Origin: an uncultured Isosphaeraceae bacterium
GTDB taxonomy: Bacteria; Planctomycetota; GCA-002687715
Assembly (NCBI GenBank): GCA_964507445.1
Contig: CAZDQF010000017.1
Coordinates: forward strand, 28,613 to 92,612
Reading direction: 5' to 3'
Length of the DNA stretch: 64,000 nt
The translations under genes and the position numbers were made by a program. Shown here piece by piece: positions 13,395-47,498 of this stretch. Position 1 is the stretch's first letter. The number at the start of each line of letters is the position of its first letter. Below the pieces are notes generated by a model. The model saw nothing but the letters and a program-made list of their open reading frames with translations, had not been told where the DNA came from and made no database searches.

Positions 13395-13542
13395 CCCCCT
13401 CTCTCGGAACGACGGAAGGAAAAGGGCTCGCCCCACGCTCGCCTCTGAGGGACCGCGTGCGACCAGCACCATGAGAGAATACCCCCAAATTGGGCGCGGA
13501 ATCTAGGAAAAACCGCGCACAAACGGAGATATGGAAAGGACT

Positions 13543-14580: not shown

Positions 14581-14625
14581 GGGCTCCGAGATTAGGCCTC
14601 GAGGAGGCCCAAATCAACGCATGGC

Positions 14626-15744
<1,119 letters not shown>

Positions 15745-15757
15745 CCCGGTAACCCCG

Positions 15758-17137: not shown

Positions 17138-17186
17138 CCGTCGATCACACCTTGACCTGACGGACCCCACCGGGTGTCATGCGCCC

Positions 17187-17678: not shown

Positions 17679-17696
17679 CGGGCAGCCCCGTCGGCC

Positions 17697-19103: not shown

Positions 19104-19104
19104 C

Positions 19105-27710: not shown

Positions 27711-28348
27711 GAGCTCACCCCTCCCGGCCCTCCACCGAGCAGTCCATGGTTCCACGCAGCCACCACGGGGGCGTCCCCCTGATAGCGAATGACGCTGAGT
27801 CCGAACGGGTCGAGCTGCATACGCTGCACCTGTTCCAACCCTACCCCCAGGGCGTTGGCCAGCAGGCAACGAATCGGCCCGGCGTGGCCGACGTAACAGA
27901 CCACCTGCCGCTGCTGCCGCCGCAGCTCGGCGTTGACCCCCTTGAGGACGCGGCGGGAGACGGTCACCAGGCTCTCCCCCTCGGGAGGTTCGGAGCGGCA
28001 GAAGTCATGCAGGAACTCCACCGCCGCGGCCTCCTCGCTGGCCACGATCTCGCTCCACGCCCTCCCCTGCCAGGACCCGAAGCGCTGCTCTCGCAGATCG
28101 CGGCGCACGCCGAGGGAGGCGTCCGCGTACCGCGCGATGCGCTCCGCCGTGCCGCGGGCGCGGCGCAGGTCCGACGTGATGACACGGCTGGGGTTCAGGG
28201 TGGCGATGGTCTCGCAGACCTGCCGCTCGTCCGCCGAGGCCTCGCGGGCGAGGGGCGGGTCCGACTGGCCGAGGGCCGCCTGGTCCCACCGAGCGGCCAC
28301 GGGGCCCCGTCGAAGCAACAGCAGGGTGGCGTGGATCTCTCGCGCCAC
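27707..28348 (-). CDS. Histidine phosphatase (phosphoglycerate-mutase-like) family protein
   Basis: 213 aa; …VVCYVGHAGPIRCLLANALG… is characteristic of the CobC/PGM-like branch. It is translationally coupled to the downstream giant gene. Confidence 0.65.
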   Translation of the reverse strand: MAREIHATLLLLRRGPVAARWDQAALGQSDPPLAREASADERQVCETIATLNPSRVITSDLRRARGTAERIARYADASLGVRRDLREQRFGSWQGRAWSEIVASEEAAAVEFLHDFCRSEPPEGESLVTVSRRVLKGVNAELRRQQRQVVCYVGHAGPIRCLLANALGVGLEQVQRMQLDPFGLSVIRYQGDAPVVAAWNHGLLGGGPGGVSS

Positions 28349-29175: not shown

Positions 29176-31089
29176 ATGCTGTCTCTGCTGAAGGCCCTTC
29201 GATCCACGCTCAAGACCCTGAACGGCGATTCCACGCCGGCGTCATGCGCCGCCGCGGTGTTGTTCGGCGCCCTGCTGGGGCTCACGCCCTTCGGGTTCCA
29301 CACCGTGCTGCTGTTCGCCCTGTTGCTGGTCTTCCGGGTCCCCGTGGGTCTTGGGATGGTCTGCGGCGCCGTCATGGGCCTGCTACGGCTGGCGGTGCTG
29401 CGGCTGGCCATCGGCCCCCTCGGGGCCACCCTCCTCGCGGAGGGGAGCGCCACCCGGGGCCTCGTGACCTGGCTGCTCGACATCCCCGTGGTGGGCCTGA
29501 TCCCCCTGGAGCGCCACGCGGTCCTGGGAGGTCTGGTCATGGCCTCGGTGATCGGAGCGCTGCTCTGGTATCCGACGGTGCTCCTGGTCCGCCGGTATCG
29601 GGAGCGGCTGCAGGACCGGCTGACCGGCTCCCGCGCCTACGACAAGGTGGCGTGGCTGCTGGGGCGCCCTCCGCAGCCCGACCCCGACCGCAAGGCCCCG
29701 TCCATGATCCGGTTCAAGCTGACGGGGACGGTGCTCGTGCTCCTCGTGCTCCTCGGATGGTGGGGCGCCGGCCCCGCCGTGGATCGGGCGTTGTCCTCGT
29801 CCCTGGAGGAGCTCCTGGCGGAGGACGTGGAGATCGGCCGGGTGACCTGCTCCGTGTTCTCCGGCGACCTGCTCATCGAAGACCTCCGGGTCGGCGGCGA
29901 CGGCGCCGAAGGGACCGAGACCCTGGGGGCGGACCGGGCCCGGGCCAACGTCTCCGTCCTCGACCTGCTGCGACGCAAGGCGGTCATCGAGGACCTGGAG
30001 ATCGACCGGCCCCGGCTGCGGCTGGAGACGGACCAGGACGGCAAGCTGGTGATCCTCAAGCGCCACGAAGAGCGCGACCGGGAGACCGGCCTGGACCCGG
30101 TGGAGATCCTCCAGGTCGCCCGCGAGAATCACGGCAAGCTGAGCGAAGCCCGCGACTGGTTGCAGCGGGTCCGCGAGCTGATGGCCTATCTGGGAGCCCG
30201 GGACGACGCCGCGGAGGAGCAGGACCTGCTCGACTTCACGGAGCTGCCGGAGCTCGGCCCTCGGCTGGTGGTGGGGTCTCTGCGCATCAGCGGGCTCCGC
30301 GTCGGCCTGGGAGACGACGGTCCCGCGCTGCGGGAGTTCCGCATCGACGGCACCCAGATCAGCACCGACCCTGCGCGCCACCCGGAGCCCATGACCGCCG
30401 GGGTCACCGGGCTGCTGGGGACCGACGACCCGGCGAACCTGGTGCTGCAGAGCACGTCGCGGAGCGCGGGGGGCGTGCTGCGGGTGGACTTCCCATCCGG
30501 CGAGCTCAGCAACGTGGGGGTCTCCATGATCGGGCCCTTGCTCTCCGACACCCTTCCCTTCGTCTTCAAGGGCGGCACCGTGGCCCTGGATCTGGGGGAA
30601 CCCAACGACTGGATCACCGGTGACGGCCGGCTCGACCTCACCACTCGCCTGATCCTGAAGGACATCCGGGTGGCCCCCCGCCCCGGCTTCAAGACCCTGG
30701 CGGGCATCGACGCGGGCAAGCTCTGCGCCGCCATCTCCGACGCCGGGACCTTCGGGCTCGACGTCCGGGTGAGCGGGGACTCCTCCGATCCTCAGGTGGA
30801 CGTGGGCGACACCATGGACAACCTCATGCGGCTGGGAGCGGCGGCCTTCCGCAAGCAGGCCCTGGGAGAGCTGGAGCGACGCTACCCCGGCATCGGCGCC
30901 GTCCTCTCCAACGACGGGCCCCTGGGGCTGCCCACGGACGCGGCCGGGATCGCCGGCGCCGTGGGTGGGCTCCTCGACCTGAAGAAGAAGCCCTTGGGGT
31001 CCGGCGCCAAGCCCGACCCCAAGGATGAGCTCATCAAGGGCCTCGGCGGCCTGCTGGGCGGCAAGAAGAACAAGAAGAAGAAGGACTGA
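29176..31089 (+). CDS. Membrane protein with an N-terminal DUF2062-like domain and a long AsmA/DUF748-like C-terminal region; the C-terminus is KKNKKKKD
   Basis: ATG at 29176 (MLSLLKALRSTLKTL…, TM helices), then roughly 500 aa of beta-rich repeats. Confidence 0.55.
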   Translation: MLSLLKALRSTLKTLNGDSTPASCAAAVLFGALLGLTPFGFHTVLLFALLLVFRVPVGLGMVCGAVMGLLRLAVLRLAIGPLGATLLAEGSATRGLVTWLLDIPVVGLIPLERHAVLGGLVMASVIGALLWYPTVLLVRRYRERLQDRLTGSRAYDKVAWLLGRPPQPDPDRKAPSMIRFKLTGTVLVLLVLLGWWGAGPAVDRALSSSLEELLAEDVEIGRVTCSVFSGDLLIEDLRVGGDGAEGTETLGADRARANVSVLDLLRRKAVIEDLEIDRPRLRLETDQDGKLVILKRHEERDRETGLDPVEILQVARENHGKLSEARDWLQRVRELMAYLGARDDAAEEQDLLDFTELPELGPRLVVGSLRISGLRVGLGDDGPALREFRIDGTQISTDPARHPEPMTAGVTGLLGTDDPANLVLQSTSRSAGGVLRVDFPSGELSNVGVSMIGPLLSDTLPFVFKGGTVALDLGEPNDWITGDGRLDLTTRLILKDIRVAPRPGFKTLAGIDAGKLCAAISDAGTFGLDVRVSGDSSDPQVDVGDTMDNLMRLGAAAFRKQALGELERRYPGIGAVLSNDGPLGLPTDAAGIAGAVGGLLDLKKKPLGSGAKPDPKDELIKGLGGLLGGKKNKKKKD

Positions 31090-31093
31090 AGAG

Positions 31094-31717
31094 GTGAGCG
31101 CTCGCGTCCCCCGAGACATGCCCGCGGAGGTCCTGGCTCCCTACATCGTGGAGCTACCGGACCCGCCGCGCCCCCTGGACCTGCCCGGGCTGTTCCGGCA
31201 GCAGGGCCCCCTGGAGCTGGAGATCGGGTTCGGCAAGGGGCGGTTCCTGGTCACCGCCGCGGAGCTGGAGCCCCACAAGAACCTCCTCGGCATCGAGGTC
31301 CGTCACGTCCTGCGGGACTTCGTGGCCTCACGCCTGGCGCGGCGAGCGCTCACCAACGCCCGGGTCATGCAGGGAGACGCGGTCACGTTCATGGCCCACA
31401 TGGTCGGCGACGGATGCCTGGACGCCATCCACTTCTACTTCCCTGATCCGTGGTGGAAGAAGCGCCACCACAAGCGACGCATCTGGACCGCCCCCCTGTT
31501 CGCCGACCTGGAGCGCGCGCTGCGCCCTGGTGGCGTGCTTCACCTGGCATCCGATGTCCCCATGGTGTTCGAAGAGCTGTGCGCACAGGCCGAGGCCCGG
31601 CCCGGATTGACCCGGGACGACGACGCCACCCTGGCGCCGCCGTGCACCACCAACTTCGAGGACAAGGCCGCACGGGACGCCAGGACCGTGGGACGTACGG
31701 CCTTCCTGCGCGCCTGA
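31094..31717 (+). CDS. trmB: tRNA (guanine46-N7)-methyltransferase
   Basis: …LELEIGFGKGRFL…, …IHFYFPDPWWKKRHHKRR…; GTG at 31094 or ATG at 31118. Confidence 0.8.
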   Translation: MSARVPRDMPAEVLAPYIVELPDPPRPLDLPGLFRQQGPLELEIGFGKGRFLVTAAELEPHKNLLGIEVRHVLRDFVASRLARRALTNARVMQGDAVTFMAHMVGDGCLDAIHFYFPDPWWKKRHHKRRIWTAPLFADLERALRPGGVLHLASDVPMVFEELCAQAEARPGLTRDDDATLAPPCTTNFEDKAARDARTVGRTAFLRA

Positions 31718-31723
31718 ACGGCC

Positions 31724-33670
31724 CTACTTCCAGTGGAACCGGGCCCGCTGCTTCACGTGGCAGTCACGGCAGGAGGCGTCCGATTCCGACGGGATCGGCA
31801 CGTCCTGGAGGCGCGAGGCCCCCTCGGTTCCCCGATGGCAATCGGCGCAGTCGGCGTCCACGTGGCCACGACTGCGGTGCGAGAAAGTGTTGGGCTGGGG
31901 CCAGGACCGCATGAGCTCGCCGCCGGTGTAGACCGGGTCCCCTTCCAGGTGACACGCGTCGCAGTCCCCGCCGCCCACGTTGTCATGGTTCTCGTGACAC
32001 GGCGTGCAGGATCTGGCCTCCGCCGTGGTGCCGGGCACACTTGAAGACCGCAGGTCGTCCCCCATGGTGTGGCAGGAGAAGCAACCGTTCTTAAGGCCGG
32101 GCTTGCTGGTGTCCAGGTGCTTGCCGTGGGGGAACTGGTTGACCCCGATCAACCCCGGCAGCCCCGGACGCAGGCCCGCCTCGGGGACGCCGGTGTCATG
32201 ACACTCCGCGCAGGCGGCGTCGCCCGCCGGCCCGCGGTAGATCCCCTTGGTCAATCCCGCCGACGCCTCCCCGGAGACCACGTCGAGGTGACATGACCGG
32301 CACTCGCCGTCCGCCGCCGCGTCCATGGACGAGAGGTGCACGCCGTGCAGGAACGGTCGGTCCGCGAGCTTCGAAGCAAACACCTTGCCGTCGCGATGAC
32401 AGTCCGCGCAATCCTTCCCGCCGGTGTCGAACTCGTGCTGATGGTCCCGCAGGGCCAGGGCGTAGACGTGGGCCCCCACCGTGAGCTCCGCCCGGGCCAG
32501 GCGCTCCACGGTCTTCAATGGAGCCGCGTGCAGGGTCTGGTGGCACTGGGCGCAGCTGACCCCCTGGTCCGCGTCCGCCCCGTGCCACGTCGCCTGCCAG
32601 CGCACCGCCTCCGGCGCCGCCTCCGACCCGTGGCACTCCTGGCAGCGCTCGTACTTGATGCGTTTGAACTCCCGCTCCGGGATGCCCCGCGATGGATCGG
32701 ACGCCTGGGCCACGTCCGCGTACTCGTGGCAGGTCTCACAATCCTCGATCCGCATGGCGCCGGCGCCCTCTCCCATGGCCTCCGCAGACAGGTGCTTGTC
32801 ATGGGGGAAGGTGTCGTAGGTCAGCGCCACCCAGGGGGTGTCGTCACGGGGAGGCACCGGCGCGGTGATCTCCGGGATCAGGTCTCCGTGGCAGTCCACG
32901 CACGTGTCCTCCGCGCGCACGGAGGTCAGGCTCGCCGTGTCCGTGCCGCGATGATCCACGTGACACGGCTGACACGATTGCCCGTCCCAGGAGACGGGGT
33001 GGGTCGGGTTCTCCACGATGTCCGCGTGGCAGGCGCTGCAGGCGGAGGGAGGTGTCCCCACCCAGCCCGAGTGGCACGCCGCGCACGAGCCGTCCCCGTG
33101 CCCCGCCGCCCGGAGCGCCGCCAGCTGCTCCGGCGCGTGGGTCGCCCAGTACCCCGGCGTGTGCACGCGGGCCAGGGAGCCGGGGTTCACCAGGGGCTCC
33201 TCCACGGCGTCCACGAACGACAGGGCGAACAGCGCGCCCACCAGCACCACGGCGGCGTAGTTGCCCCAGCGCAGAGGGCGGAACCGGCCGAACTCCACCT
33301 CGTAGCGAGACCACCGCAGCGGGTCCTCCTTCTTGTCATAGAAGAAGGACTGCTCCTTGAGGGCGCAGGTGAGGGTCCCCTTCTCCTCGTCGATCTCGCA
33401 GGTGAACTTGGAGACCCCGATGACGACGCCGATCTTGCCCTCGCCCTTGATCTCCGTGCGCTCGTCCACGGAGACCCCGGCCATGTAGGTCCCGGACGAG
33501 GTCCCCAGGTCCTCGATGAAGAAGCGGCCGTCTTCGTGGGTGAACGCACAGTGACGTTCCGCGACCATGGGGTCGTCCACCACCAGGTCGCAGGTGGAGC
33601 GTGTCCCCACCACCCCCGCGCGGTTCTCGATGGTGGCGGTCGCGCCTTTCTTCTTCAGGACAATCGCCAC
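31724..33670 (-). CDS. FHA domain - transmembrane helix - multiheme cytochrome c (15 CxxCH) fusion protein
   Basis: N-terminal FHA signature (VGTRSTCDLVVDDPMVAERHCAF…IEDLGTSSGTYMAGV), a TM segment (YAAVVLVGALFALSFV), then 15 CxxCH motifs. The probable start is GTG 33670, 1 nt after the upstream stop; the track ORF begins at GTG 33736. Confidence 0.8.
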   Translation of the reverse strand: MAIVLKKKGATATIENRAGVVGTRSTCDLVVDDPMVAERHCAFTHEDGRFFIEDLGTSSGTYMAGVSVDERTEIKGEGKIGVVIGVSKFTCEIDEEKGTLTCALKEQSFFYDKKEDPLRWSRYEVEFGRFRPLRWGNYAAVVLVGALFALSFVDAVEEPLVNPGSLARVHTPGYWATHAPEQLAALRAAGHGDGSCAACHSGWVGTPPSACSACHADIVENPTHPVSWDGQSCQPCHVDHRGTDTASLTSVRAEDTCVDCHGDLIPEITAPVPPRDDTPWVALTYDTFPHDKHLSAEAMGEGAGAMRIEDCETCHEYADVAQASDPSRGIPEREFKRIKYERCQECHGSEAAPEAVRWQATWHGADADQGVSCAQCHQTLHAAPLKTVERLARAELTVGAHVYALALRDHQHEFDTGGKDCADCHRDGKVFASKLADRPFLHGVHLSSMDAAADGECRSCHLDVVSGEASAGLTKGIYRGPAGDAACAECHDTGVPEAGLRPGLPGLIGVNQFPHGKHLDTSKPGLKNGCFSCHTMGDDLRSSSVPGTTAEARSCTPCHENHDNVGGGDCDACHLEGDPVYTGGELMRSWPQPNTFSHRSRGHVDADCADCHRGTEGASRLQDVPIPSESDASCRDCHVKQRARFHWK

Positions 33671-33671
33671 C

Positions 33672-35147
33672 CTACATCCCCACGATGTCCGCCGGGTCCA
33701 CCCTGGAGATGGCGCTGCACGGACAGTTATAGACACACGCTTCGAACGGCAGGCCCGCGCACAGGTCGCACTTGATGGCCTTCTTGTCGGGCTTCTTGGG
33801 TTTCTTGGGCTTCTCCGCCTCCTCCGAAGCCGCCTCCGGTTCCTGCGCCGGTGTCCCCTTGGAGCGCTTGATGAAGGGCAGCATGCGGGAGAAGAATGAG
33901 CGCCGCTCCTTCTCTTCGCCGCCGGGCTCCGTCAGGGTGGCCATGCGGATGACGCCGTAGGGGCACTTGATCTCGCACGCCATGCATCCGGTGCAGTTGG
34001 GCAGGATGAAGTGGATGGCGCCGTTGACGTCACGGCGGATGGCGCCGTAGTTGCAACCGATCATGCACTCGGGGACCGTGCAGTTGTAGCAGGCGCTGGT
34101 GAGCATGACGTCGCCGGTCTTGATGCCACGCTTGGACAACCGGGGGACACCGTCCTCGTGGACCGAGACGCAGGCCTCCACGCAGGCGTTGCATCGGGTG
34201 CAGCGCTTGAGATCGATGAGCAGGGCCTCCCCTCCCTTCACCGCCTCCTTGCCCACCATGAGGTCCATGGCCGCGGTCCTGGACAGGTCCACCACAGGCG
34301 CCGGGTCGTTCTTCACCTCCTGCCCCTGCTCCTGGGCCAGCAGCAATCCCACGGTCTGCTGGATGCGGGTCCCCGCCTGCACGTCGCGCTTGTACAGGGC
34401 CAGGAAGACCTCTCGGCGCAGCCGCACAACGTCCACCCGGGTCATGGCCACCATGCTGGATGGCCAGGTCTTGTCATCCGCCAGGGACCGCTCACCGAAG
34501 GAGGAGTTGTCCCGCAGGAACGCCACCACCTTGGAGCCCTCCGGCGTGGCCCGCTCTTCCTTGACGATGCCGCTGCGGACCAGATAGACGGCGTCCGCCT
34601 CCTTGCCCTCTTCTGCGATGGCCTTGCCCTCGGCGAACGTCAGCAGCTCCGCGTCCTCCGCCACGGCGGCGAGGACGTGACGATCAACGCCCTTGAACAC
34701 CGGCGCCGACCTCAGGTGGACCGCGAGGGCCCGCTCCCGGTATCGCTCGTCGATCAGGTCCCTGAACGACCCGCCGCCCTTGTAGAGGGTCTTGAACAGC
34801 GGCGCCCCCACCACCATCAGGGTGCAGTGGGCCTCCGCCTTCACGGTGCTGAACTGAGGCTGGTTGGCCAGGGCCGTCATCTCTCCGAACCAGTCATGGA
34901 CCCCGTGGGAACCCATGTTCTCGACGCTGCCGTCCGACTCCGTCCGGTAGGCGGTGGCGATGCCGTCCAACACCACGAACAGCTCTTCCAGGAACTCCCC
35001 CTGCCGGACCAGGGTGTCCCCTGGCATGGCTCGGCGAAACTCCACCTCGCTCTCAGCCGCAGCCATGGCCTTCGGCTTCACCTTGCCGAACAACGGGACC
35101 TGCGTCAGCAGGGCCTTGAGTTCTCCAAACTGCGCAGCGCCGCTCAT
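33672..35147 (-). CDS. Cytoplasmic protein with two cyclic-nucleotide-binding (cNMP) domains and C-terminal multi-cluster 4Fe-4S ferredoxin domains
   Basis: cNMP signatures (…WFGEMTAL…, …FGERSL…); Cys motifs CTRCNACVEAC, CYNCTVPECMIGC, CTGCMACEIKCP and CDLCAGLPFEACVYNCPC; no signal peptide. Confidence 0.8.
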   Translation of the reverse strand: MSGAAQFGELKALLTQVPLFGKVKPKAMAAAESEVEFRRAMPGDTLVRQGEFLEELFVVLDGIATAYRTESDGSVENMGSHGVHDWFGEMTALANQPQFSTVKAEAHCTLMVVGAPLFKTLYKGGGSFRDLIDERYRERALAVHLRSAPVFKGVDRHVLAAVAEDAELLTFAEGKAIAEEGKEADAVYLVRSGIVKEERATPEGSKVVAFLRDNSSFGERSLADDKTWPSSMVAMTRVDVVRLRREVFLALYKRDVQAGTRIQQTVGLLLAQEQGQEVKNDPAPVVDLSRTAAMDLMVGKEAVKGGEALLIDLKRCTRCNACVEACVSVHEDGVPRLSKRGIKTGDVMLTSACYNCTVPECMIGCNYGAIRRDVNGAIHFILPNCTGCMACEIKCPYGVIRMATLTEPGGEEKERRSFFSRMLPFIKRSKGTPAQEPEAASEEAEKPKKPKKPDKKAIKCDLCAGLPFEACVYNCPCSAISRVDPADIVGM

Positions 35148-35149
35148 GA

Positions 35150-36160
35150 TCAGTACCAGATCACCGAGACCGTGTGGACGATGGCGAAGCCGAGCAGCAA
35201 CAACGAGCAGGGCACGTGGACGACGCGCCAGACGTTGATGCTGAACTTGACCCGGGCAGCGGCGGCCAGGTCATCGAGGATCCGGCGTCGCTGGGAGACC
35301 AGCACCATGACATCTTGCAGATCCTGCCGCCCCTCAGGCGCCTCCTCCATCATGCTCATGAGAGCGGTGCGGTGCACCAGGGCCCGGGTCGTCGCCTTCC
35401 CCGCCCCCTTGAGCCGCTTCACCTCGTGCGCGTCCAGCCCATCGTAGGCTTCCCGGATCTTGGCCTTCAGGCTCCGCTCCAGCACGAAGGCCTGCTCGTG
35501 GTTCATGTCGCGCTCCGCGCGGGTCATCCAACGCGGGCCCAGGGCGAACAACACCGTACCGACGACGCCGGTGACGATGACCAGCACGGCCAGCCCGTTG
35601 AGGATCACCCCCATGGGCGAGACCATGGAGAACCCTCCGTGGACCCACAAGGTGACGCCGGAAGCCAGACCCAGGTAGACGTGGAAGTGGAGCCACCTGG
35701 ACATGCGCCCGAGGGGTTCCGTGGGCTCCACCCCGACGATGAACGCCGGTCCACCGACCGCTCCCGGAGTGACCTTGGCCTTACAGATCCGATCGGCCCC
35801 GTGAGCCGCCAACTCCCGCTGCGCCATCTCCCTGATCTCGGCGGCGTTGTTCAGCAACCCCAGGAGCACCCGGCGTCGGATGTCGTTCAGGCCTTGCTCC
35901 GCCTGCTCCAGCTGCTCCAGGGGCACCTTCAGCTTGAACTCGGGCGAGATCCCCAGGCGATGCATGAACTTGCGCAGAGAGTAGACGCAAACCGCCACCA
36001 TGATCCCCAACGTGGTCCACCCACTGGCGAGCACGATGTCCACGTCGGAGCCTTCCCGGGCCCCCGCAGCGCTCCCAGCGGCCGCCAACCACCAGACGAA
36101 CCCGCCTGACACGATGACGGCGACCACGGACCACCAGCTCCTGAACAGGGAGACGTTCAC
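35150..36160 (-). CDS. 5-TM integral membrane protein with conserved intramembrane histidines (possible b-type haem or quinone-interacting subunit)
   Basis: TM helices containing WLHFHVYLG…WVHGG and RVVHVPCSLLLLGFAIVHTV. It overlaps the upstream gene by 4 nt and sits 2 nt from the downstream gene. Confidence 0.55.
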   Translation of the reverse strand: MNVSLFRSWWSVVAVIVSGGFVWWLAAAGSAAGAREGSDVDIVLASGWTTLGIMVAVCVYSLRKFMHRLGISPEFKLKVPLEQLEQAEQGLNDIRRRVLLGLLNNAAEIREMAQRELAAHGADRICKAKVTPGAVGGPAFIVGVEPTEPLGRMSRWLHFHVYLGLASGVTLWVHGGFSMVSPMGVILNGLAVLVIVTGVVGTVLFALGPRWMTRAERDMNHEQAFVLERSLKAKIREAYDGLDAHEVKRLKGAGKATTRALVHRTALMSMMEEAPEGRQDLQDVMVLVSQRRRILDDLAAAARVKFSINVWRVVHVPCSLLLLGFAIVHTVSVIWY

Positions 36161-38193
36161 CGGCGTCTCCCAGGGAAGCCATCGAGCTCGCCGCCGAGCG
36201 ATTCAGCGATCCGCCTCCACTCCGGACGCGTCTTCCCCGAACCGGTGAGCCCCTTCTCGATCAGCTCGTGCCAGTGGCAGTCCGCACAACCTTCCGGGTC
36301 GCTCCGGGACGCCTGCCGCGCGCCCCTGTGATAGCCGTTGCGCTCGTACTTCATGTCCGCATGGACCAGCACGTCCTCCCGGACGTTGAACACGGCCGCG
36401 CCGGGCAGGTGGCAGGTGCCGCACTTCTGTTCCGCCGGATAGGGGTGCCACTGAGCCCCGGCGACGCCCGTCACCCGGACCCGGAAATCGCTCACCGCGA
36501 CGTCCGCCTCGGGGCCGTCAGGGCCGTGGCAACGGGCGCAGGACTGGACGTAGTCCCTCCCCTTGTCCGCGCAGATCTCCGGACGCTCGCCGTGGTCGTG
36601 GCACGCCGAGCAGTCCATGGCGCCGGGCAGGGTCCCGACCCCTGGCGCCCCTCCCTGCGCCGGCACGTGGCAGGACACGCAACCGTCCTCGAGGAGCGGG
36701 TCTCTCAACGCCTTCGCCGTCATGTGGACGTCGTGGGGGAACGTCGGCACCCTGCGAGGAGCCACCGTCTCCTCGCTCCGGATCACGCTCAGCTCGCCGC
36801 CCTTGTGACACTCTCCGCACGCCTTGTCGGAGTAGAGGCTCAGGTCCTCGGGCCGGGTCGACCCCGTGATGTCGCCGTGGCAGGCCACACAGTCCTGGTT
36901 GGTGGGGTTCGGCGGCAGGTGGGTGTCATGAGAGAACGCCTTGCCGCTGATACGAGAGGGCAGCCCGCCCTCGATCCTGGCCCGATGGCACTTGCGACAG
37001 TCTTCCCCCTGCACCAGCTTCCCGCCCCGGCGGGTGATCATGGGGTGGTCGTGGCTGGTCACGGCGAACCCCACCGGCCGGGTCCGCGACACCTCCACCT
37101 GGGGGCGGAGAGTCTTCATGGGGCCGTCGCCGAAGGCGTGGCACGGCGCGCAGCTCTCCACCTTGCCGTGGTCGTCGATTCCCTGGGCGTCCCGCACCGC
37201 CAGCGGGTTGTCCTCGAGGCGGTCGTGGCATTCCGCGCAGGCGCTGTAACGGCGCTCCCGGAACTTGCTCTGCAGCCCGTAGGTGCGGCCTTCCTCCGCC
37301 GGCTCGTGGCAGGCGAGGCACCCCTTGGAGCGCAACGCCGGGTCCTTGTTCAGCGCATCCGCGTCCATGTGAGGACCGTGGGGGAAGGTCCCCAACAGGA
37401 CACACTCGTGAGCAGCGCGTTCCAGCTGCTCGGGCCCCAGCAGTCCCTCCCCCGACCGGTCCTTGTGACAGTCGGCGCAAGAGTCCAGCTTCACCATGGA
37501 GGGGCCGATGGCGGCGCCTGGGTCCGTGAGGAGATCGCCGTGGCATGTCCCGCACGCCGCCGCGTCCGCGCCGCTGCCCGCGGGCAGGTGCTCATCGTGG
37601 CGAAACGCCGCGGGCCGAGGGCCCGTCGCCTTGCCGAGGTAGGCGTTCAGTCCATCGACGAATTCGACGTTCTTCGTCCCCGACGGGTCGGCGTCGATGG
37701 CGTTCGCACCCTCCGGATCGTGACACTCGAAGCAGGTGTGCCACCCGGGCCGGAACTTGATGTCACCGCGCCTGCCCAGATCATCCGGGCGTCCGGAAGC
37801 CCCCTCGTGGCATCGCTTGCAGTCGTAGGCCGCATGGGACCAGTGCCTGAACGGACGCCCGTCAGCGCGGAGCACGTCCAGGTCTTCCAGGAACGACGGA
37901 CTCGTGTCCTCTCGGTCGAGCTCCAGGGCTGGGGCGCCTCCGCCGCTGCTGTGGCAGGCGTCGCACACCTGCTGCGGGTCCCGGGTCTCGGTCTCGCTCT
38001 TGTAGAGATGGCAGCCCCGACAATCCCTGGCGTATTCGCTGCCGCCCTCCTGGCGCCAGCCCGCACGGACGTGGTCCGCGTGTCGAAACGGCTTGCTGGT
38101 CGACGGCGGCGAGTCGCTCCGCTCGTTGGAGGACGGCACCATCAGGACGAGCTGGGCGGTGGTCACAACCGCCAGGGCCAGAGACCGTCCCAT
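36157..38193 (-). CDS. Secreted multiheme cytochrome c (17 CxxCH)
   Basis: ATG at 38193 precedes a signal peptide (MGRSLALAVVTTAQLVLMVP); 17 CxxCH motifs. The start lies 2 nt after the stop of the tandem-FHA gene. Confidence 0.8.
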   Translation of the reverse strand: MGRSLALAVVTTAQLVLMVPSSNERSDSPPSTSKPFRHADHVRAGWRQEGGSEYARDCRGCHLYKSETETRDPQQVCDACHSSGGGAPALELDREDTSPSFLEDLDVLRADGRPFRHWSHAAYDCKRCHEGASGRPDDLGRRGDIKFRPGWHTCFECHDPEGANAIDADPSGTKNVEFVDGLNAYLGKATGPRPAAFRHDEHLPAGSGADAAACGTCHGDLLTDPGAAIGPSMVKLDSCADCHKDRSGEGLLGPEQLERAAHECVLLGTFPHGPHMDADALNKDPALRSKGCLACHEPAEEGRTYGLQSKFRERRYSACAECHDRLEDNPLAVRDAQGIDDHGKVESCAPCHAFGDGPMKTLRPQVEVSRTRPVGFAVTSHDHPMITRRGGKLVQGEDCRKCHRARIEGGLPSRISGKAFSHDTHLPPNPTNQDCVACHGDITGSTRPEDLSLYSDKACGECHKGGELSVIRSEETVAPRRVPTFPHDVHMTAKALRDPLLEDGCVSCHVPAQGGAPGVGTLPGAMDCSACHDHGERPEICADKGRDYVQSCARCHGPDGPEADVAVSDFRVRVTGVAGAQWHPYPAEQKCGTCHLPGAAVFNVREDVLVHADMKYERNGYHRGARQASRSDPEGCADCHWHELIEKGLTGSGKTRPEWRRIAESLGGELDGFPGRRR

Positions 38194-38195
38194 GG

Positions 38196-39707
38196 TCACG
38201 CGCCGATCCCCAGCACCGCCGGGAACCAGAAGAACAGCACCACGAGGACGACGAGTAGAAGCGCGAGCGCCACGACCGCGACCTTCAGCCCTGCGCCGCC
38301 ACCGCTCTGCTGCCGCATGACGCTCAGGAACGGAGCCTTCGCCATGGCATCGCACCACTGAGCCACCGTCACCCGACCCGACAACAGCAGCGCCTCGCCC
38401 GGGTGCTCCGAATCCGATGCCGCCTCTGCGCTCACCCGCTTCATGGCCGACGCGCTCACCACGTCCTCCGCCGAGAGGATCTCCAACGCATCATGCCAAC
38501 TCTGAACGGAGACGCGGTTCCCGCCGCTGCCCACGTCCGCGACCCAGAGCGCGTCCACGGTTCCGAACCGGACATGGGTGTCCGGATGGAGCTCTCGAGG
38601 CTGATCCGGCATCACCCGATCGGGACCCAAGAACGTGCCGTTGCGGCTGTCCAGATCGTGCAGGAAGAACCGCCCACCCTGGAACCGGATCCGGGCGTGG
38701 GTCGAGGAGACCGCGTCGTGAGACAACCGGCAATGGACACCCTTCTCCTGGTCGTCACTCCTCCCCACCACGACGTTGGGGCCGGAGATATCAAACCGGG
38801 TTCGGATGGCCTCCGTGGCGATGATCAACCGGGCGTTCGCAACCCGGAACGCCGCCATCTCCGCCAGCCCCGCCGCAGCACCCGCCTCCGCCAGCGCTTG
38901 ACCGACGCCATGAGCGAACACGGTCCGCGGTTCGGACGGGGCCGGGCGAGGCTCCTCCGCTTCCGCCTCCTTGGCCGCCGCTTCCTTCGCCGCAGCTTCC
39001 TTGGCCGCCGCCTCCTTGGCCGCCGCCTCCTTGGCCGCCGCCTCCTTGGCCGCCGCTTCCTTGGCCGCCGCTTCCTTGGCCGCCGCCTCCTTGGCCGCAG
39101 CTTCCTTGGCCGCAGCTTCCTTGGCCGCAGCTTCCTTGGCCGCCGCTTCCTTGGCCGCCGCTTCCTTCGCCGCCGCTTCCTTCGCTGCCGCTTCCTTCGC
39201 CGCCGCTTCCTTCGCCGCCGCTTCCTTGGCCGCCGCTTCCTTGGCCGCCGCTTCCCTGGCCTTCTCTGCTTCGAGGCTCCGGATCTTCTCTGCCGCCAAC
39301 CTCGCCTGTTCGGCCGCCGCTCGCGCCTGCTCAGCGACCGCACCGGGCAGCGTGCTCTGCTCGGCGAAGGCGAGCTCCGCTGCGCTGCCCGTCCCCTCCT
39401 GAGGCCCACCCGACACGACGATCGTGGTTCGGCCGATGGTGAGAGTCAGCCCACAGCGGATGGGGTAGGACTCGCCATCGCTGAGGATGGGGCCGGACTC
39501 AATGAGGGTCTTGTTCGTGCTACCACAATCCAGAATCGCGAGGCCACCGTCGACGCCCTCGGCGAACTTGGCGTGAAACGCCGACGCCTTCGCATCATCA
39601 AGAACGAGGTCGTTGCTCGGATGACGTCCTACTCGAAGACCGGCGTGACACGGGACGGTCCTCGGTGCCTTGTCGGGCTCCTCAACCCGCAATTCCCACT
39701 TGCTCAT
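38196..39707 (-). CDS. Tail-anchored protein with two FHA domains separated by an (A/E)AAKE pentapeptide-repeat spacer
   Basis: N-terminal FHA (LRVGRHPSNDLVLDDAKASAFHA…ILDCGSTNKT) and C-terminal FHA (VVVGRSDDQ…VSSTHARIRF…LHDLDSRNGTF); about 21 copies of KEAAA; a C-terminal TM helix (VAVVALALLLVVLVVLFFWF). Confidence 0.8.
   Translation of the reverse strand: MSKWELRVEEPDKAPRTVPCHAGLRVGRHPSNDLVLDDAKASAFHAKFAEGVDGGLAILDCGSTNKTLIESGPILSDGESYPIRCGLTLTIGRTTIVVSGGPQEGTGSAAELAFAEQSTLPGAVAEQARAAAEQARLAAEKIRSLEAEKAREAAAKEAAAKEAAAKEAAAKEAAAKEAAAKEAAAKEAAAKEAAAKEAAAKEAAAKEAAAKEAAAKEAAAKEAAAKEAAAKEAAAKEAAAKEAAAKEAEAEEPRPAPSEPRTVFAHGVGQALAEAGAAAGLAEMAAFRVANARLIIATEAIRTRFDISGPNVVVGRSDDQEKGVHCRLSHDAVSSTHARIRFQGGRFFLHDLDSRNGTFLGPDRVMPDQPRELHPDTHVRFGTVDALWVADVGSGGNRVSVQSWHDALEILSAEDVVSASAMKRVSAEAASDSEHPGEALLLSGRVTVAQWCDAMAKAPFLSVMRQQSGGGAGLKVAVVALALLLVVLVVLFFWFPAVLGIGA
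38942..39260. repeat. About 21 copies of a 15-bp tandem repeat (gccgccgcttccttg and variants) encoding the (KEAAA)n spacer
   Basis: Read from the sequence (39001-39240 is almost pure repeat); coding, in frame. Confidence 0.8.
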
Positions 39708-39757
39708 GGTGCTCGGTAATCCCCGCTTGTTTGCGGGTATGGTAGCGCATGGTGGGA

Positions 39758-43618
<3,861 letters not shown>

Positions 43619-43630
43619 CTTCCGACTCCC

Positions 43631-45556
43631 CTACCAGGTGAACGTGAGCTCAGCGAACGCGTGCCACAGCAGATCGTCGCTCTCGTAGATCTTCCGCAAC
43701 CCACCGCCGGGCCTGAGCACAGAGCCACCGAAGGTGAAGATGATGTTGTTGGTCAACAGCGGCCGGTACTGGACCCCCATGAGGGCCTCCACGCCGATGT
43801 CACGGGGGATCTCCTCCAGCTCCACCAACGTCTCCAGCGGGTTGGTGGTGGCGAAGCGCAGCCCCTGAATCGCGGCCGTCATCTTCACCGTCGGGGTGAG
43901 CTCGATGTCCGTGCCGATGCCGTAGATGGCGATGCCCGGATTGACGAACGCCGCCTGCCCCTCGAACTTGGACGCCTGCAGGTCCGCCAGCGGGCTCAGC
44001 CTGTTGGTCAGGAAGGTCCCGAACAGGGGCACCGCCTGACGGTTCCAGTAGGAGAACTCGCCGCCGGCGAAGTTGGGAGCGTCCACGATGGCGTCGAATC
44101 CGCCGCCCTTGCCGTCTCGCGCGTCGTGGTCGCCAGACCCGTAGAACACGTAGGCCTTGAGCCGGAACCAGTCCCAGTCATAGGAGACCTCCACGGCCGC
44201 CAGCTGCGCGTCGATGTCGATCTCCCGCGCGGCGATGGGGTCTTCCGTGTCGTGCCCCCAGACCTGGTAGACGGCCCCCGTGAGGTTGAAGCGTCCGATG
44301 TGGCCGTCGAACGCCCACCCCAGGTAGTAGGTGTCGATCTCGTGCTCCTGGAAGCTCCCGATGGGGGTCGGTCGCGTCAGGAAGTCGTTGTCGTTGAAGT
44401 GGACCCCGCCGCCGTCGTGGCTCCAATGGAACGACAGCTCCTGATTGAATCCCTTGAAGGGGAAGTCGAAGCGGTAGACGTTGGCGATCAGCACCTCCTG
44501 GTTGCGATCATCGAACGTGTTGAGCTCCGAGTTGGTGTTCTTCTCCAGCAGGTGGAAGTAGGCCAGGTTGTACTGCCACTTGTTGTCGTCCGCGTTGCCG
44601 AAGATCCGGGCGCCCAGATTCACGTCGTCAAAGATGAAGCCTCGGAAGTCACTCCGAAACTCGAGGATCCCCGCCTCGAAAGACAAGAAGTCGTAGCGGT
44701 CGTTCCAGTCCAGCAGGTGGATCTCGATGAACGCTTCTTCCAGCGCGATGTCGTCGGTCAGGCGATCCGTGCCCTGCCCGGGGTTGATGTTGACCCCGCC
44801 GGTCTCTTCCAGGTTCAGGTAGGTGACGTTGGCGGCGAGGACCGCCTTCAACCGCCAGTCCACGGGCTTGAAGAACTGCTGGCCCTTGAAGATGTCGATC
44901 TCCAGGGCGGTGATGTTCAGGAGGAAGTCCTGGTTCCCGTCACCGAAGAAGGGCTCGTTGTTGGGAACGGGGCCGGTGTTCCCGGTGCCGATGGGCACCT
45001 TGCGCGTCTCCAGGATGGAGAAGCTCTCCAGCTCCAGGGAGAGGAACACGTCATCGCCGATGATGGGGTAGTCCCCCTTCAGCGTGTTCAGGTTGTACGG
45101 GTCGAGGGAGCTCTTCCCCTTGTTGATCACGTAGGCGGGGTTGAACAGGGGGACCGGGTCAATGGCCCAGCGATCAGGCATGGGCTCGAAGTGACGCGGC
45201 TTCTCCTGGGGAGCGGTCACCGGCTTGCTCTCGGCGACGGTCACCGGCTTGCTCTCGGCGACGGCCACCGGCTTGCTCTCGGCGACGGCCACCAGCTTGC
45301 TCTCGGCGACGGCCACCGGCTTGCTCTCGGCGACGGCCACCGGCTTGCTCTCGGCGACGGCCACCGGCTTGCTCGACGCCACCGGACGGTCAACCGCCAC
45401 GGGGTCCGACCCAACCCGCGAGCCCACCATGGTCGGCTCAGGATGCGGAGGGTCCTCCGGCGGGGGCCGGTGCCCAGCGCTGGAGCAGGCCGCAACCAAC
45501 AACACGCAACCCCCAAGGCACGACCGCCCCAGGAATCTCCGCGAGCTTGTATCCAT
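43631..45556 (-). CDS. Putative outer-membrane beta-barrel (porin-like) lipoprotein with an N-terminal (ESKPVAVA)n repeat
   Basis: Lipobox LLVAAC; a G/D/N/aromatic-rich body with alternating hydrophobics; C-terminal …AFAELTFTW-COOH, the aromatic terminus typical of OMPs. It ends 12 nt upstream of the lipoprotein cytochrome gene. Confidence 0.6.
   Translation of the reverse strand: MDTSSRRFLGRSCLGGCVLLVAACSSAGHRPPPEDPPHPEPTMVGSRVGSDPVAVDRPVASSKPVAVAESKPVAVAESKPVAVAESKLVAVAESKPVAVAESKPVTVAESKPVTAPQEKPRHFEPMPDRWAIDPVPLFNPAYVINKGKSSLDPYNLNTLKGDYPIIGDDVFLSLELESFSILETRKVPIGTGNTGPVPNNEPFFGDGNQDFLLNITALEIDIFKGQQFFKPVDWRLKAVLAANVTYLNLEETGGVNINPGQGTDRLTDDIALEEAFIEIHLLDWNDRYDFLSFEAGILEFRSDFRGFIFDDVNLGARIFGNADDNKWQYNLAYFHLLEKNTNSELNTFDDRNQEVLIANVYRFDFPFKGFNQELSFHWSHDGGGVHFNDNDFLTRPTPIGSFQEHEIDTYYLGWAFDGHIGRFNLTGAVYQVWGHDTEDPIAAREIDIDAQLAAVEVSYDWDWFRLKAYVFYGSGDHDARDGKGGGFDAIVDAPNFAGGEFSYWNRQAVPLFGTFLTNRLSPLADLQASKFEGQAAFVNPGIAIYGIGTDIELTPTVKMTAAIQGLRFATTNPLETLVELEEIPRDIGVEALMGVQYRPLLTNNIIFTFGGSVLRPGGGLRKIYESDDLLWHAFAELTFTW
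45205..45394. repeat. About 7 copies of a 24-bp tandem repeat (ctcggcgacggccaccggcttgct) encoding ESKPVAVA
   Basis: Read from the sequence; coding, in frame. Confidence 0.75.
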
Positions 45557-45767
45557 GGCCCCTCTCTCCTTTGGCCGCCCCGGCTCTGGTCACCGCAGGT
45601 CCTCGCAGGAACACGGATGCGCCCCGGGCCTGCACAAGCTAATTCCGCGGCTGCCCCCCGTCAAAGAGAACCGGTCGGCCGCGTCCTGCCGCAGTGGCGC
45701 ACGGCGGGTGCTTGGCATAGCCTGTAGCCGTCGCAGGCAGGAGGAACCAAGAGGGGGATTCTGAGCG

Positions 45768-47498
45768 ATGAGAGAGAACTGCGTCCTGATCCGGCCGGCG
45801 GTCACCGTGCTGCTGATGCTGTGCCTCGGCACCACCCTCGGTTGCGGAGGCGCCGGCGGAGATGTGCCCGGGCAGTTGTTCTCCCCCGACTTCGGGACCG
45901 TAGATCCCCTGACGGCGGCGGACGTTCAGCTCATCGTCGAACGCGCGGTCGCCTCCATCGCGGCTCCCGATTTCCACGTGGCGGTCGTGGACCGACGCGG
46001 ATTTCCTCTCGCCGCGTTCAGCACCGCCGGCCCCGCCATCACCGACGAGGCGAACATCGCCCTGAGCCTCGCCCGCACCACGGCGTTCTTCTCCAACAGC
46101 CAGGCGCCGTTGACGTCGCGCACGGTCCAGGCCATCTCCACCTTCCACTTCCCGGCCACCTTCGGCAACGCCTTCGTACCCTCGGTCTGTCCCACCTCGG
46201 GGGTCGCCGGGTGCATGGACACGGCCATCGCTCCGCAGCAGGCCACCACCGGAGTGGACGGGACCCCGCAAGGGCCCCTGTGGCAGATCAACGCCACCAA
46301 CCGGGGGGCTCCCATCGCCGATCCGGATGGGCTCCCCAACTTCAACCTCCCGGTACAGACCGTCCGCCCGACGTTCTTCAACCCGGGACAGCAGTACCCG
46401 CGGTCCACCAACCTGGACGGCACGTTCCCGAGCCCCGGCATCACGGTGCTGCCCGGAGCCGTCCCCCTGTACAAGGACAACCTGGAGGGGACCATGAAGC
46501 GGCTGGTGGGCGGCGTCGGTGTCTTCATCCGGCCCGGCGGCGCCGCCGCGGACCCGGACATCCTGGGGGCGGAGTTCGCCGCGTTGAGCGGAGCCACCGG
46601 CGTCCCCGCTGGGGGGCCCACAGACTTCCGTCTGCCGGGGGTCCCCAACACGGGCGCGGTCTACCTGAACGGCATCCTCCTGCCCAACGTGGAGCAGACC
46701 ACCCTGCCCGCCGGCGCAGCGCCAGGGGCCCCGCCGCCACCGCCGGGTGACCCGCTCTGGATCGTGAACCCCATGGCCGGCGATGTCCCTGCCGACGGCT
46801 ACCTCATCGGCCCCCGGGCCAGCATGGAACCCAACGGGCCCACCCTCGCGGAGGTCATGCAGGTCATCGACCAGTGCCAGGCGACGGCGGACCTGAACCG
46901 CTCCGCCATCCGCCTTCCTCTGGGCAGCACCTCCAAGATCATCGCCACCGTGGTGGATACACGGGGCCTGATCCTCGCCCACTTCCGTATGGAGGACACC
47001 CTGACGGACGCCGTGGACGTGGTCCCCGCGAAGGCCCGCACCGTGGCCTACTACAGCCAACCCGGCGGTCCAGCGGCAGCGGATCAGTGGCCCGGGTTCC
47101 CCGTGGACCCGGTGAACGGGGTCGCCGTCACCACCACAGCCCTCGGCTTCCTGTCCCAGCCCTACTACCCGCCGGGCATCAGCTCCTCCGGCGTCCAGGG
47201 CCCCCTGTTCCCGCGCGCCGTGGACAACCAGCTCCCCGTGCAGGCCACCCTCATGGGCGCCGCGCCGCCGGACCCGGGCTACCAGAACGGCCTGATCTTC
47301 TTCCCGGGGGCGGTCCCCCTCTACCGCAACGGGGTGCTCATCGGCGCCCTCGGGGTCTCCGGAGACGGGGTCGAGAACAACGACTTCATCGCCGCCGGAG
47401 GAGCGGTCTCCTTCGAGCCTCCCCCGGCCCTCCGGATCGACAACTTCTTCTTCGACGGGGTGCGGATCCCCTACCTGAAGTTCCCCACCAACCCCTGA
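45768..47498 (+). CDS. Lipoprotein with two GlcG/HbpS-like (DUF336, haem/tetrapyrrole-binding-type) domains
   Basis: Lipobox LGCG; two copies of the GAVPL(Y)…GVSG…D…A motif (GAVPLYKDN…LVGGVGVF and GAVPLYRNGVLIGALGVSGDGVENNDFIAAGG). It is divergent from the porin-cytochrome operon. Confidence 0.55.
   Translation: MRENCVLIRPAVTVLLMLCLGTTLGCGGAGGDVPGQLFSPDFGTVDPLTAADVQLIVERAVASIAAPDFHVAVVDRRGFPLAAFSTAGPAITDEANIALSLARTTAFFSNSQAPLTSRTVQAISTFHFPATFGNAFVPSVCPTSGVAGCMDTAIAPQQATTGVDGTPQGPLWQINATNRGAPIADPDGLPNFNLPVQTVRPTFFNPGQQYPRSTNLDGTFPSPGITVLPGAVPLYKDNLEGTMKRLVGGVGVFIRPGGAAADPDILGAEFAALSGATGVPAGGPTDFRLPGVPNTGAVYLNGILLPNVEQTTLPAGAAPGAPPPPPGDPLWIVNPMAGDVPADGYLIGPRASMEPNGPTLAEVMQVIDQCQATADLNRSAIRLPLGSTSKIIATVVDTRGLILAHFRMEDTLTDAVDVVPAKARTVAYYSQPGGPAAADQWPGFPVDPVNGVAVTTTALGFLSQPYYPPGISSSGVQGPLFPRAVDNQLPVQATLMGAAPPDPGYQNGLIFFPGAVPLYRNGVLIGALGVSGDGVENNDFIAAGGAVSFEPPPALRIDNFFFDGVRIPYLKFPTNP

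Follow-up and report, generated by a model that had tools for sequence, protein, structure and literature searches.

A conserved gene cluster of Planctomycetota for a probable trans-envelope electron-transfer chain, with multihaem cytochromes, FHA proteins, a predicted di-haem b cytochrome and a cytoplasmic iron-sulphur protein

A window of 64,000 nucleotides (nt) from contig CAZDQF010000017.1 of an uncultured Isosphaeraceae bacterium (Planctomycetota), with a G+C content of ~68%, holds seven tightly packed open reading frames (ORFs) on its minus strand, here called g1 to g7, and a divergent gene on the plus strand, g0 (positions are window coordinates unless a relative is named). Together they make up a genuine system of electron transfer across the envelope that is conserved and for the most part uncharacterised, and whose core trio (g5, g6 and g7) has been noticed only very recently. 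A preliminary description, made from the letters alone, had taken g1-g7 for an envelope-spanning multihaem-cytochrome module with cytoplasmic FHA and cyclic nucleotide monophosphate (cNMP) sensor domains; its ORF positions agree with the ORFs of the window, the translations were checked, and its structural description of the cluster proved right. Outside its gene set lay g0, which is a conserved eighth component. The features are:

g1, 43631-45556, minus strand: 641 amino acids (aa), with a signal peptide and an LLVAAC lipobox
g2, 39758-43618, minus strand: 1286 aa, with ten CxxCH motifs, an LFTSC lipobox-like N-terminus and an LVIVD match (E 1.6e-20)
g3, 38196-39707, minus strand: 503 aa, with two FHA domains (E 6.8e-27) and a C-terminal transmembrane (TM) helix at residues 468-503
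g4, 36157-38193, minus strand: 678 aa from an ATG at 38193, with 17 CxxCH motifs
g5, 35150-36160, minus strand: 336 aa, with five predicted TM helices
g5 TM3, 35636-35710, minus strand: residues 151-175, carrying His160 and His174
g5 TM5, 35156-35245, minus strand: residues 306-335, carrying His315 and His329
g6, 33672-35147, minus strand: 491 aa, with two cNMP_binding domains (E 2.4e-35) and Fer4 families
g7, 31724-33670, minus strand: 648 aa from a GTG at 33670, with an FHA domain (E 5.9e-12), a TM helix at residues 135-158 and 15 CxxCH motifs
g0, 45768-47498, plus strand: HbpS/GlcG-like lipoprotein with tandem domains, divergent from g1
g1-g0 intergenic region, 45557-45767: 211 nt, read directly, presumed promoter region for both genes
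g1 tandem repeat, 45214-45374, minus strand: 24-nt unit in 6.7 copies, encoding the (AESKPVAV)n linker
g3 tandem repeat, 38963-39261, minus strand: 15-nt unit in 19.9 copies, encoding the (AAKEA)n spacer

The third-codon-position G+C of the seven minus-strand ORFs is of the coding type, and their junctions are short, with 12 nt between g1 and g2, 50 nt between g2 and g3, and spacings of +2 (g3/g4), -4 (g4/g5, GTGA), +2 (g5/g6) and +1 (g6/g7) from there on. These coordinates bear out the 12-nt gap and the coupling of g3-g7 at -4 to +2 nt that had been reported, and the GTG start of g7, on which that coupling partly depended, is supported by homologues that begin with MA(K/H/R)F at the aligned position. 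No noteworthy terminator-like site was found within the cluster on the minus strand, terminator-like matches being at background level, and a scan for sigma-70-type promoters found none, including in the g1-g0 gap, a result that says little for a planctomycete. The claimed 42 c-type haem sites were counted again in the checked translations (10 CxxCH in g2, 17 in g4 and 15 in g7, with zero in g1, g3, g5 and g6), against a chance expectation of ~0.01 per 2,600 residues by our own estimate from Cys and His frequencies, and Pfam recovered every domain named in the preliminary description (LVIVD, FHA, cNMP_binding, 4Fe-4S and c7/c3-type haem). That the FHA and cNMP matches are low-complexity artefacts of high G+C was rejected in view of their strong E-values and of the retention of the domains in loci of 49-71% G+C.

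The arrangement is strongly conserved in relatives. A g5-profile scan of GTDB species representatives gave 22 loci, to which metagenome contigs were added, with mapping by tblastn; 20 of the 22 are labelled as Planctomycetota or as Planctomycetales/Planctomycetaceae metagenome-assembled genomes (MAGs), and the other two only as 'uncultured bacterium'. In nearly all of ~25 independent Planctomycetota loci, with g5 identities of 31-69% and G+C contents of 49-71%, the order g3-g5-g6-g7 is kept with a g4-type gene nearby, a few of the loci being cut before g3 or g7 or being without a g3 match. Type A loci have the full order g1-g2-g3-g4-g5-g6-g7 (L001, L004, L005, L008, L010 and L013, with shorter contigs consistent), and in L001, L004 and L005 g1 is preceded by a divergently oriented g0. 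Type B loci have g3-g5-g6-g7 with a g4-like gene on the opposite strand and neither g1 nor g2 within 10 kb, and nine of them hold an extra, separate gene of FHA-FAD_binding_6-NAD_binding_1-Fer2 architecture.

Flavoproteins recur in other forms as well. A Pyr_redox_2 gene stands beside the g4-like gene in L031, and Pyr_redox_2 is fused to a protein with two cyclic-nucleotide-binding domains and Fer4 in L028, L029, L030, L033 and L034. L028 and L030 have a short g5-like gene between a 790-aa Pyr_redox_2-cNMP-cNMP-Fer4 fusion and an FHA-TM-decahaem cytochrome, and in L029 a 1212-aa fusion and a g5-like gene are present, after which the contig ends within the next ORF. A search with the flavo-iron-sulphur fusion returned >6,000 matches at E <= 0.001, many of them possibly partial to the query; homologues of the fusion protein that carry an organism label are mostly from Xanthomonadales and are titled 'cyclic nucleotide-binding domain-containing protein'. 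Two cultured species, Pseudomarimonas arenosa and Tahibacter soli, have the gene order fusion, g5-like, FHA-decahaem, HbpS-like, g1-like and LVIVD multihaem, and g1 shares 36% identity with its Pseudomarimonas counterpart. Hosts of the system include cultured soil and marine proteobacteria, among them aerobic heterotrophic Xanthomonadales. Six of the eight gene families thus occur as a set in both phyla, and g3 and g4 are planctomycete additions; the system as a whole spans Planctomycetota and Xanthomonadales and probably also Gallionellaceae. Because these relatives encode a flavoprotein of the NAD(P)H type, either as a fusion, in an adjacent gene or with an FHA tag, pyridine nucleotide seems to be the cytoplasmic redox partner.

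The membrane protein g5 has no Pfam or NCBIfam match. A word-based search found ~25 close clusters, those with an organism label being Planctomycetes or Planctomycetota MAGs, and an exhaustive profile search returned 102 representatives at E <= 1e-30 and 3,239 at E <= 1e-3, including a shorter family of ~280 aa that matches g5 residues 148-337. The preliminary description had called g5 a His-rich protein with five TM helices, which holds, and the histidines can now be narrowed to a family trait of four conserved residues that form two His-x13-His pairs in the predicted TM3 and TM5 (pLDDT of the model 82). In three alignments, of 18, 14 and 29 sequences, every sequence has His160, His174, His315 and His329, and an alignment of 30 has a single exception, P0245, with Gln at His329. 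Since basic residues follow TM2 and TM4, His160/His315 would lie near the cytoplasmic face and His174/His329 near the periplasmic face. Four histidines on two helices at a spacing of ~13 residues are the mark of a di-haem transmembrane cytochrome b, and g5 has them. Membership of a solved cytochrome b family could nevertheless not be shown, as no family model matched g5 significantly: the g5 family profile (A4) gave chance-level matches only against PDB sequences, a Foldseek comparison of the predicted g5 structure with the PDB returned nothing at E <= 0.001, and distant relatives gave marginal Pfam matches to Ni_hydr_CYTB, DUF4405 and Ferric_reduct, with P0257 alone at the Ni_hydr_CYTB gathering score. 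We thus regard g5 as probably a new, unnamed family of predicted di-haem b cytochromes. The planctomycete 'long' g5 also has a cytoplasmic insert of ~85 residues (63-150; 35711-35974) that is absent from the proteobacterial short family and ends in a nearly invariant PTEPLGR motif. As both this insert and g3 are planctomycete-specific, we speculate that the Thr of the motif might be an FHA target.

The core's iron-sulphur protein, g6, has neither a signal peptide nor a TM segment. Its cNMP-fold domains lie at ~residues 19-123 and 144-262 (PF00027 in two stretches), and its ferredoxin domain at 309-480 carries four Cys motifs, CxxCxxCxxxC, CxxCx4CxxxC, CxxCxxCxxxCP and CxxCx7CxxxCP, which are conserved in both phyla. 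PDB matches comprise PKA-R and CRP, to whose structures the cNMP folds align, and iron-sulphur subunits of the ArrB/HycB type and of AOR. The four [4Fe-4S] motifs are those of the four-cluster ferredoxins of the DmsB/NrfC/HybA/HycB type, although all matches to NCBIfam ferredoxin-subunit equivalogs are below cut-off. Between Cys motifs 3 and 4 lies a short hydrophobic stretch, likewise conserved in both phyla, which is a candidate membrane- or g5-docking element.

The FHA-tagged cytochrome g7 is predicted to span the membrane once, with its FHA domain (residues 7-80) in the cytoplasm, the TM helix at 135-158 and the 15-haem domain in the periplasm. It matches Cytochrome_C7 (E 1.8e-22) and the type III secretion model Yop-YscD_cpl (E 1.2e-8). 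Fifteen CxxCH motifs are present in 19 of 20 homologues, and the proteobacterial counterparts have the same FHA-TM-multihaem architecture with 10 haems. Its companion g4 is a predicted secreted 17-haem cytochrome of c7/c3-type units, a putative periplasmic 'wire', with Pfam matches to Cytochrome_C7 (E 1.6e-27) and the MtrC/MtrF II/IV domain (E 8e-21), TmcA-like and nanowire_3heme NCBIfam matches that are all under cut-off, and 17 CxxCH motifs in all 12 homologues. The last protein of this group, g3, is a predicted tail-anchored, cytoplasmic tandem-FHA protein, in which FHA1 (residues 22-96) and FHA2 (312-382) are separated by an (AAKEA)20 spacer and followed by the TM helix. It matches TagH at E 3.9e-22 and is also FhaB/FipA-like. 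The coding repeats in g3 and g1 are near-perfect, and since homologue lengths differ (349-526 aa for g3), linker lengths are probably variable between strains.

Ser/Thr-kinase and cNMP control of electron flow had been proposed from these domains, and both proposals stand in part. The phosphothreonine-contact signature is retained in g3 (GR, SAFH and NKT in FHA1; GR, SSTH and NGT in FHA2), and the FHA2 signature GR..S..H..NGT is conserved in >20 homologues. The FHA domain of g7, by contrast, is degenerate (GTR, AERH and SSGT), with the canonical Ser and Asn lost across the whole g7 family, and the 64-kb window encodes no Ser/Thr kinase (Pkinase) and no nucleotide cyclase. The two cNMP domains of g6 are likewise real, but the phosphate-binding-cassette Arg, present in PKA-R (PRAATV and PRQATV), is replaced by Gln in domain 1 (NQPQFSTV) and by Trp in domain 2 (KTWPSSMV). 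In planctomycete g6 homologues, the domain-1 Arg is kept in 2 of 22 and domain 2 has a conserved Trp, whereas the proteobacterial fusion relatives have the canonical cassettes RRSATV and KRSATV. This g6 probably no longer senses cAMP or cGMP, and cNMP control seems plausible for the family but doubtful for this cluster, since the Arg is missing here and the cassettes are canonical in the proteobacterial fusions. Overall, kinase or cNMP control of this cluster is weakly supported. The sole phospho-signalling gene found in the window encodes a GAF-SpoIIE protein (PP2C-type Ser/Thr phosphatase) and follows an HDOD protein gene, the two together occupying 55060-57626 on the plus strand; they are ~10 kb away from g1-g7, and nothing indicates a link between them and the cluster. 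Large Ser/Thr kinase genes occur in L002 (20862 onward), L004 (3115-7803) and L016 (337-795), the L004 kinase being fused to an FGE-sulfatase domain and lying beside an HbpS-like gene.

The outer-membrane module comprises g0, g1 and g2. The g1 protein has no Pfam or NCBIfam match and consists of a lipoprotein-type signal, the repeat-rich (AESKPVAV)n linker (pLDDT below 50 in the predicted model) and a β-barrel of ~18 strands at residues 170-640, which resembles AlgE/OprD rather than MtrB and has >1,300 homologue clusters. Next to it, g2 is a predicted decahaem lipoprotein cytochrome with a C-terminal LVIVD β-propeller. It has no relative among PDB sequences, and its similarity to Geobacter ExtM is weak and local (78.9 bits against a cut-off of 800). 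In Type A loci its homologues are 55-82% identical, ten CxxCH motifs being present in six of seven full-length homologues and nine in that of L004, and in L033 and L034 an LVIVD multihaem gene follows the barrel gene. The g0 protein carries a signal peptide with an LGC lipobox and no CxxCH; it matches Pfam HbpS-like at E 2.6e-17 and, in the PDB, GlcG/EfgA and the PduO C-terminal domain, and a g0-type gene adjoins the g1 homologue in L001, L004, L005, L031, L032, L033 and L034. Both L031 (18590-19597) and L032 (11685-12695) have a gene for a GTPase of the MeaB/ArgK type some kb downstream of their g1-HbpS pair. As haem or corrinoids are the ligands of HbpS/PduO-C-like domains, a connection to tetrapyrroles is possible. 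In L031, the region beside the g1/HbpS-like pair (13756-18034) encodes a 1002-aa FHA-like (YscD-type) plus CAP protein and an FHA-TPR protein.

Taking these observations together, we lean towards the reading that g1-g7 and the divergent g0 form one electron-transfer chain from the cytoplasm to the outer membrane, which works outwards and independently of quinones. The domains, motifs, topology cues and synteny are observed; that g5 binds haem b, which proteins touch each other, which way the electrons move and what accepts them are inferred. The soluble g6, with four [4Fe-4S] clusters, would dock on g5 in the cytoplasm, and g5 would hold two b haems between TM3 and TM5, one per membrane face, with His160/His315 and His174/His329 as ligands. 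From there, electrons would pass to two long periplasmic c7-type wires, the membrane-anchored 15-haem g7 and the soluble 17-haem g4, and on to the outer-membrane module of the g1 barrel, the decahaem β-propeller lipoprotein g2 and the HbpS-like lipoprotein g0. The complete path might thus run from NAD(P)H through a flavoprotein, the iron-sulphur clusters, the b haems and the c haems to a periplasmic or surface acceptor, with a logic like that of NADPH oxidase or Fre-MsrQ, extended by a haem wire, and a layout like that of Tmc/Hmc. The FHA domains most plausibly serve as cytoplasmic docking or assembly modules, g3 possibly acting in a phosphothreonine-dependent manner like TagH of type VI secretion, and the degenerate FHA of g7 probably docking its partner without phosphorylation, like YscD or PrgH. 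Quinone-independent export is favoured because outward flow from NAD(P)H would be downhill and aided by the membrane potential, while the reverse would be doubly uphill for most external donors.

Several points weigh against this reading. With 18 strands, the barrel probably lacks the width to enclose a chain of haems in the manner of MtrB, whose barrel has 26 strands, the Geobacter Omb proteins being predicted to have about 20 or more, and electron passage across the outer membrane is therefore no more than a possibility. A flavoprotein gene was not found in the 64-kb window, so that the window offers no candidate for the cytoplasmic partner of g6. The direction is argued from thermodynamics only, and the architecturally similar Tmc and Hmc carry electrons inwards; a quinone site in g5 is possible; and co-transcription of g1-g7 is deduced solely from gene spacing. 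As to the regulatory side, kinase genes occur within 10 kb in only three of the ~25 loci (L002, L004 and L016), where their proximity may be chance in kinase-rich planctomycetes.

Among the alternatives, we give an appreciable though minor chance to a division into two adjacent functions, in which g0-g2 would make up a substrate channel in the outer membrane and, facing the periplasm, an enzyme that uses haem or a unit that handles it; this enzyme or unit would exchange electrons with g3-g7, and no electrons would be carried across the outer membrane. The resemblance of g1 to the substrate channels AlgE and OprD would fit, as would the g1/HbpS-like pair without a nearby core in L032, the Type B cores with neither g1 nor g2 within 10 kb, and the general observation that β-propeller haem proteins are often enzymes; however, g0, g1 and g2 directly adjoin the core in the two phyla alike, and the gaps in Type A measure 5-50 nt. 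The stricter view that g1-g2 are merely an unrelated neighbouring operon was rejected in favour of a single chain, as the same genes follow the core in Xanthomonadales, and is kept as a partial rival.

Inward uptake in the manner of Tmc/Hmc, from an outside donor through g2/g4/g7 to the b haems of g5, then g6, a flavoprotein and a cytoplasmic acceptor in a proton-motive redox loop, appears unlikely to us. It draws on the shared layout, on the sub-threshold TmcA match of g4, on the presence of the core trio in Fe(II)-oxidising Gallionellaceae and on the four-cluster iron-sulphur plus di-haem b arrangement of NarH/NarI, in which flow is generally known to be inward, but the recurrent partner is a flavoprotein of the NAD(P)H type, the reduction of NAD(P)+ from Fe(II)-like donors against the membrane potential would be doubly uphill, and the system occurs in aerobic heterotrophic Xanthomonadales. 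We think it more unlikely still that the module is linked to quinones, with g5 as a quinol dehydrogenase or quinone reductase (like CbcL, NarI, FdnI or HyaC) that feeds the wires and g6 as an accessory or regulatory protein. Most known bacterial di-haem b subunits of this size do have a quinone site, g5 weakly resembles FdnI, HyaC and Ni_hydr_CYTB in structure and at the level of Pfam, and quinone reduction has been considered for a related system (see below). Against these stand the lack of any detected family membership for g5 and its strict coupling to a cytoplasmic four-cluster protein and flavoproteins, which would make a complete path without quinone.

The known outward respiratory routes start at the quinone pool, with CymA, ImcH or CbcL passing electrons to periplasmic cytochromes and on to Mtr or Pcc complexes. 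A start at a cytoplasmic iron-sulphur protein and flavoprotein, through an undescribed b-type membrane protein, would be a different entry point to extracellular or periplasmic electron transfer, and one in which signalling domains are built into the electron carriers themselves. In its boldest form, the proposal is that of an unrecognised, multi-phylum, quinone-independent export machine, in which a new di-haem b family couples a flavo-iron-sulphur NAD(P)H dehydrogenase to an FHA-anchored wire and an outer-membrane decahaem β-propeller, gated by phosphothreonine-FHA docking and, in proteobacteria, by cyclic nucleotides; as a whole we consider this tentative and rather doubtful. If it were true, aerobic soil and marine hosts could be a source of NAD(P)H-dependent extracellular reduction of metals or humic substances, or of oxygen to superoxide. 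The system is widespread, and its culturable hosts make the hypothesis testable by genetics and biochemistry.

Elsewhere in the window, the flanks on the other strand are unrelated, with a convergent methyltransferase gene (31025-31717, plus strand) beyond g7. Adjacent genes for topoisomerase VI lie at 17697-20775 on the minus strand (subunit A with Spo11/Toprim, subunit B with the transducer domain), an enzyme that is mainly archaeal and eukaryotic and uncommon in bacteria. Two consecutive short ORFs at 2739-3101 and 3120-3392 (plus strand) match positions 5-61 and 72-147 of the DUF3179 profile, as if one gene had been split by a frameshift, an interruption or an error in sequencing. The minus strand encodes a sulfatase of 1354 aa that has a long extension (23805-27869) and, separately, an FGE-sulfatase (formylglycine-generating enzyme-like; 12609-13472), and the cluster in L001 is also flanked by sulfatase and FGE genes. 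The region 57702-61300 (plus strand) encodes a PSCyt1-PSCyt2-PSD1 protein followed by a DUF1501 protein, a typical planctomycete pair that agrees with the assignment to Planctomycetota, and 61331-63939 (minus strand), at the window edge, holds a DUF2868 gene and a DUF3482 GTPase (MMR_HSR1) gene.

The closest precedent is the trio of Ferrigenium straubiae, consisting of an FHA-nonahaem cytochrome, a motif-less 5-TM protein and a [4Fe-4S] protein, which is expressed under every condition tested and to which no function was assigned (bioRxiv 10.64898/2026.01.22.701106). The authors of that preprint considered quinone reduction and stated that FHA with multihaem cytochromes was previously unreported, and 27 genomes of a Gallionellaceae pangenome have an entry for a 'Forkhead-associated protein' with 10 haems (PMC9900912). 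Shared with the Ferrigenium 'NHC' are the FHA domain on a single-pass multihaem cytochrome, the 5-TM protein and the cytosolic iron-sulphur protein; matching architecture and the proteobacterial loci, rather than sequence alignment, lead us to regard the trio as homologous to the core of our cluster. The FHA-cytochrome of Ferrigenium and Gallionellaceae has 9-10 haems, whereas planctomycete g7 has 15, and the present cluster adds the tandem-FHA protein, the 17-haem periplasmic cytochrome and the outer-membrane module. In the preprint, the 5-TM protein is described as lacking a redox motif and cNMP domains go unmentioned; the four histidines described here suggest a function for this protein, to which the preprint assigned none. 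The claim in the preliminary description that FHA domains in such conduits are undescribed was accordingly nearly right, in that this 2026 preprint has the FHA-nonahaem cytochrome and, beyond the Ferrigenium and Gallionellaceae reports, we found nothing in the literature on FHA, multihaem cytochromes and extracellular electron transfer. Literature searches also found nothing on the planctomycete cluster itself, on its cNMP domains or HbpS-like partner or on the fusions to a flavoprotein, and nothing for cNMP with pyridine-nucleotide oxidoreductase and 4Fe-4S or for HbpS with multihaem; the sole paper found on LVIVD together with multihaem concerns Tenderiales, whose LVIVD protein has an unclear relation to ours, and a 2026 paper on extracellular electron transfer in peat is silent on these domains. 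No known named system matches the cluster either, as NCBIfam has no match above cut-off and in their source records the proteins are titled 'hypothetical' or 'cyclic nucleotide-binding domain-containing protein'.

The likeness to porin-cytochrome conduits (MtrCAB, OmaB-OmbB-OmcB and PCC3) that had been suggested extends to the gene arrangement, a barrel gene by a lipoprotein multihaem gene with a periplasmic multihaem gene in the operon (g1, g2 and g4, conserved in Type A). It does not extend to the barrel, which is 18-stranded, AlgE/OprD-like and probably not wide enough to enclose a cytochrome as in Mtr/Pcc, nor to the cytochromes, which have domain-level Pfam matches only and no membership of the MtrA/DmsE or MtrC/OmcA families (DmsE/MtrA-family decahaem model: g7 62.8 bits and g4 37.9 bits against a cut-off of 192). 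A constant HbpS-like partner is a further difference, and entry at the inner membrane would be through the cytoplasmic iron-sulphur protein here, compared to a quinol dehydrogenase for porin-cytochrome complexes.

With the type VI secretion TagH/Fha1 system (PpkA, PppA) and the type III secretion proteins YscD/PrgH, the cluster shares FHA domains on the cytoplasmic face of an envelope-spanning machine, g7 having a YscD-like topology; the cargo here would be electrons instead of proteins, and a cognate kinase or phosphatase is not encoded beside the cluster. The Desulfovibrio complexes Tmc (TmcABCD) and Hmc (HmcABCDEF) likewise combine a periplasmic multihaem c cytochrome, a membrane cytochrome b and a cytoplasmic iron-sulphur protein. 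Their iron-sulphur subunit is, however, of the CCG/HdrD type, in contrast to the DmsB/HycB-type four-cluster protein with cNMP folds found here, their b subunit is unrelated to g5 by sequence, they have neither FHA domains nor an outer-membrane module, and the direction of flow in our system is probably opposite to theirs. In its logic, the proposed chain comes close to NADPH oxidase, ferric reductase and STEAP, and to Fre-MsrQ, from which it is set apart by a g5 with five TM helices and no detectable sequence membership in these families, by the interposition of four iron-sulphur clusters and by an acceptor that would be a 15- to 17-haem c-type wire.

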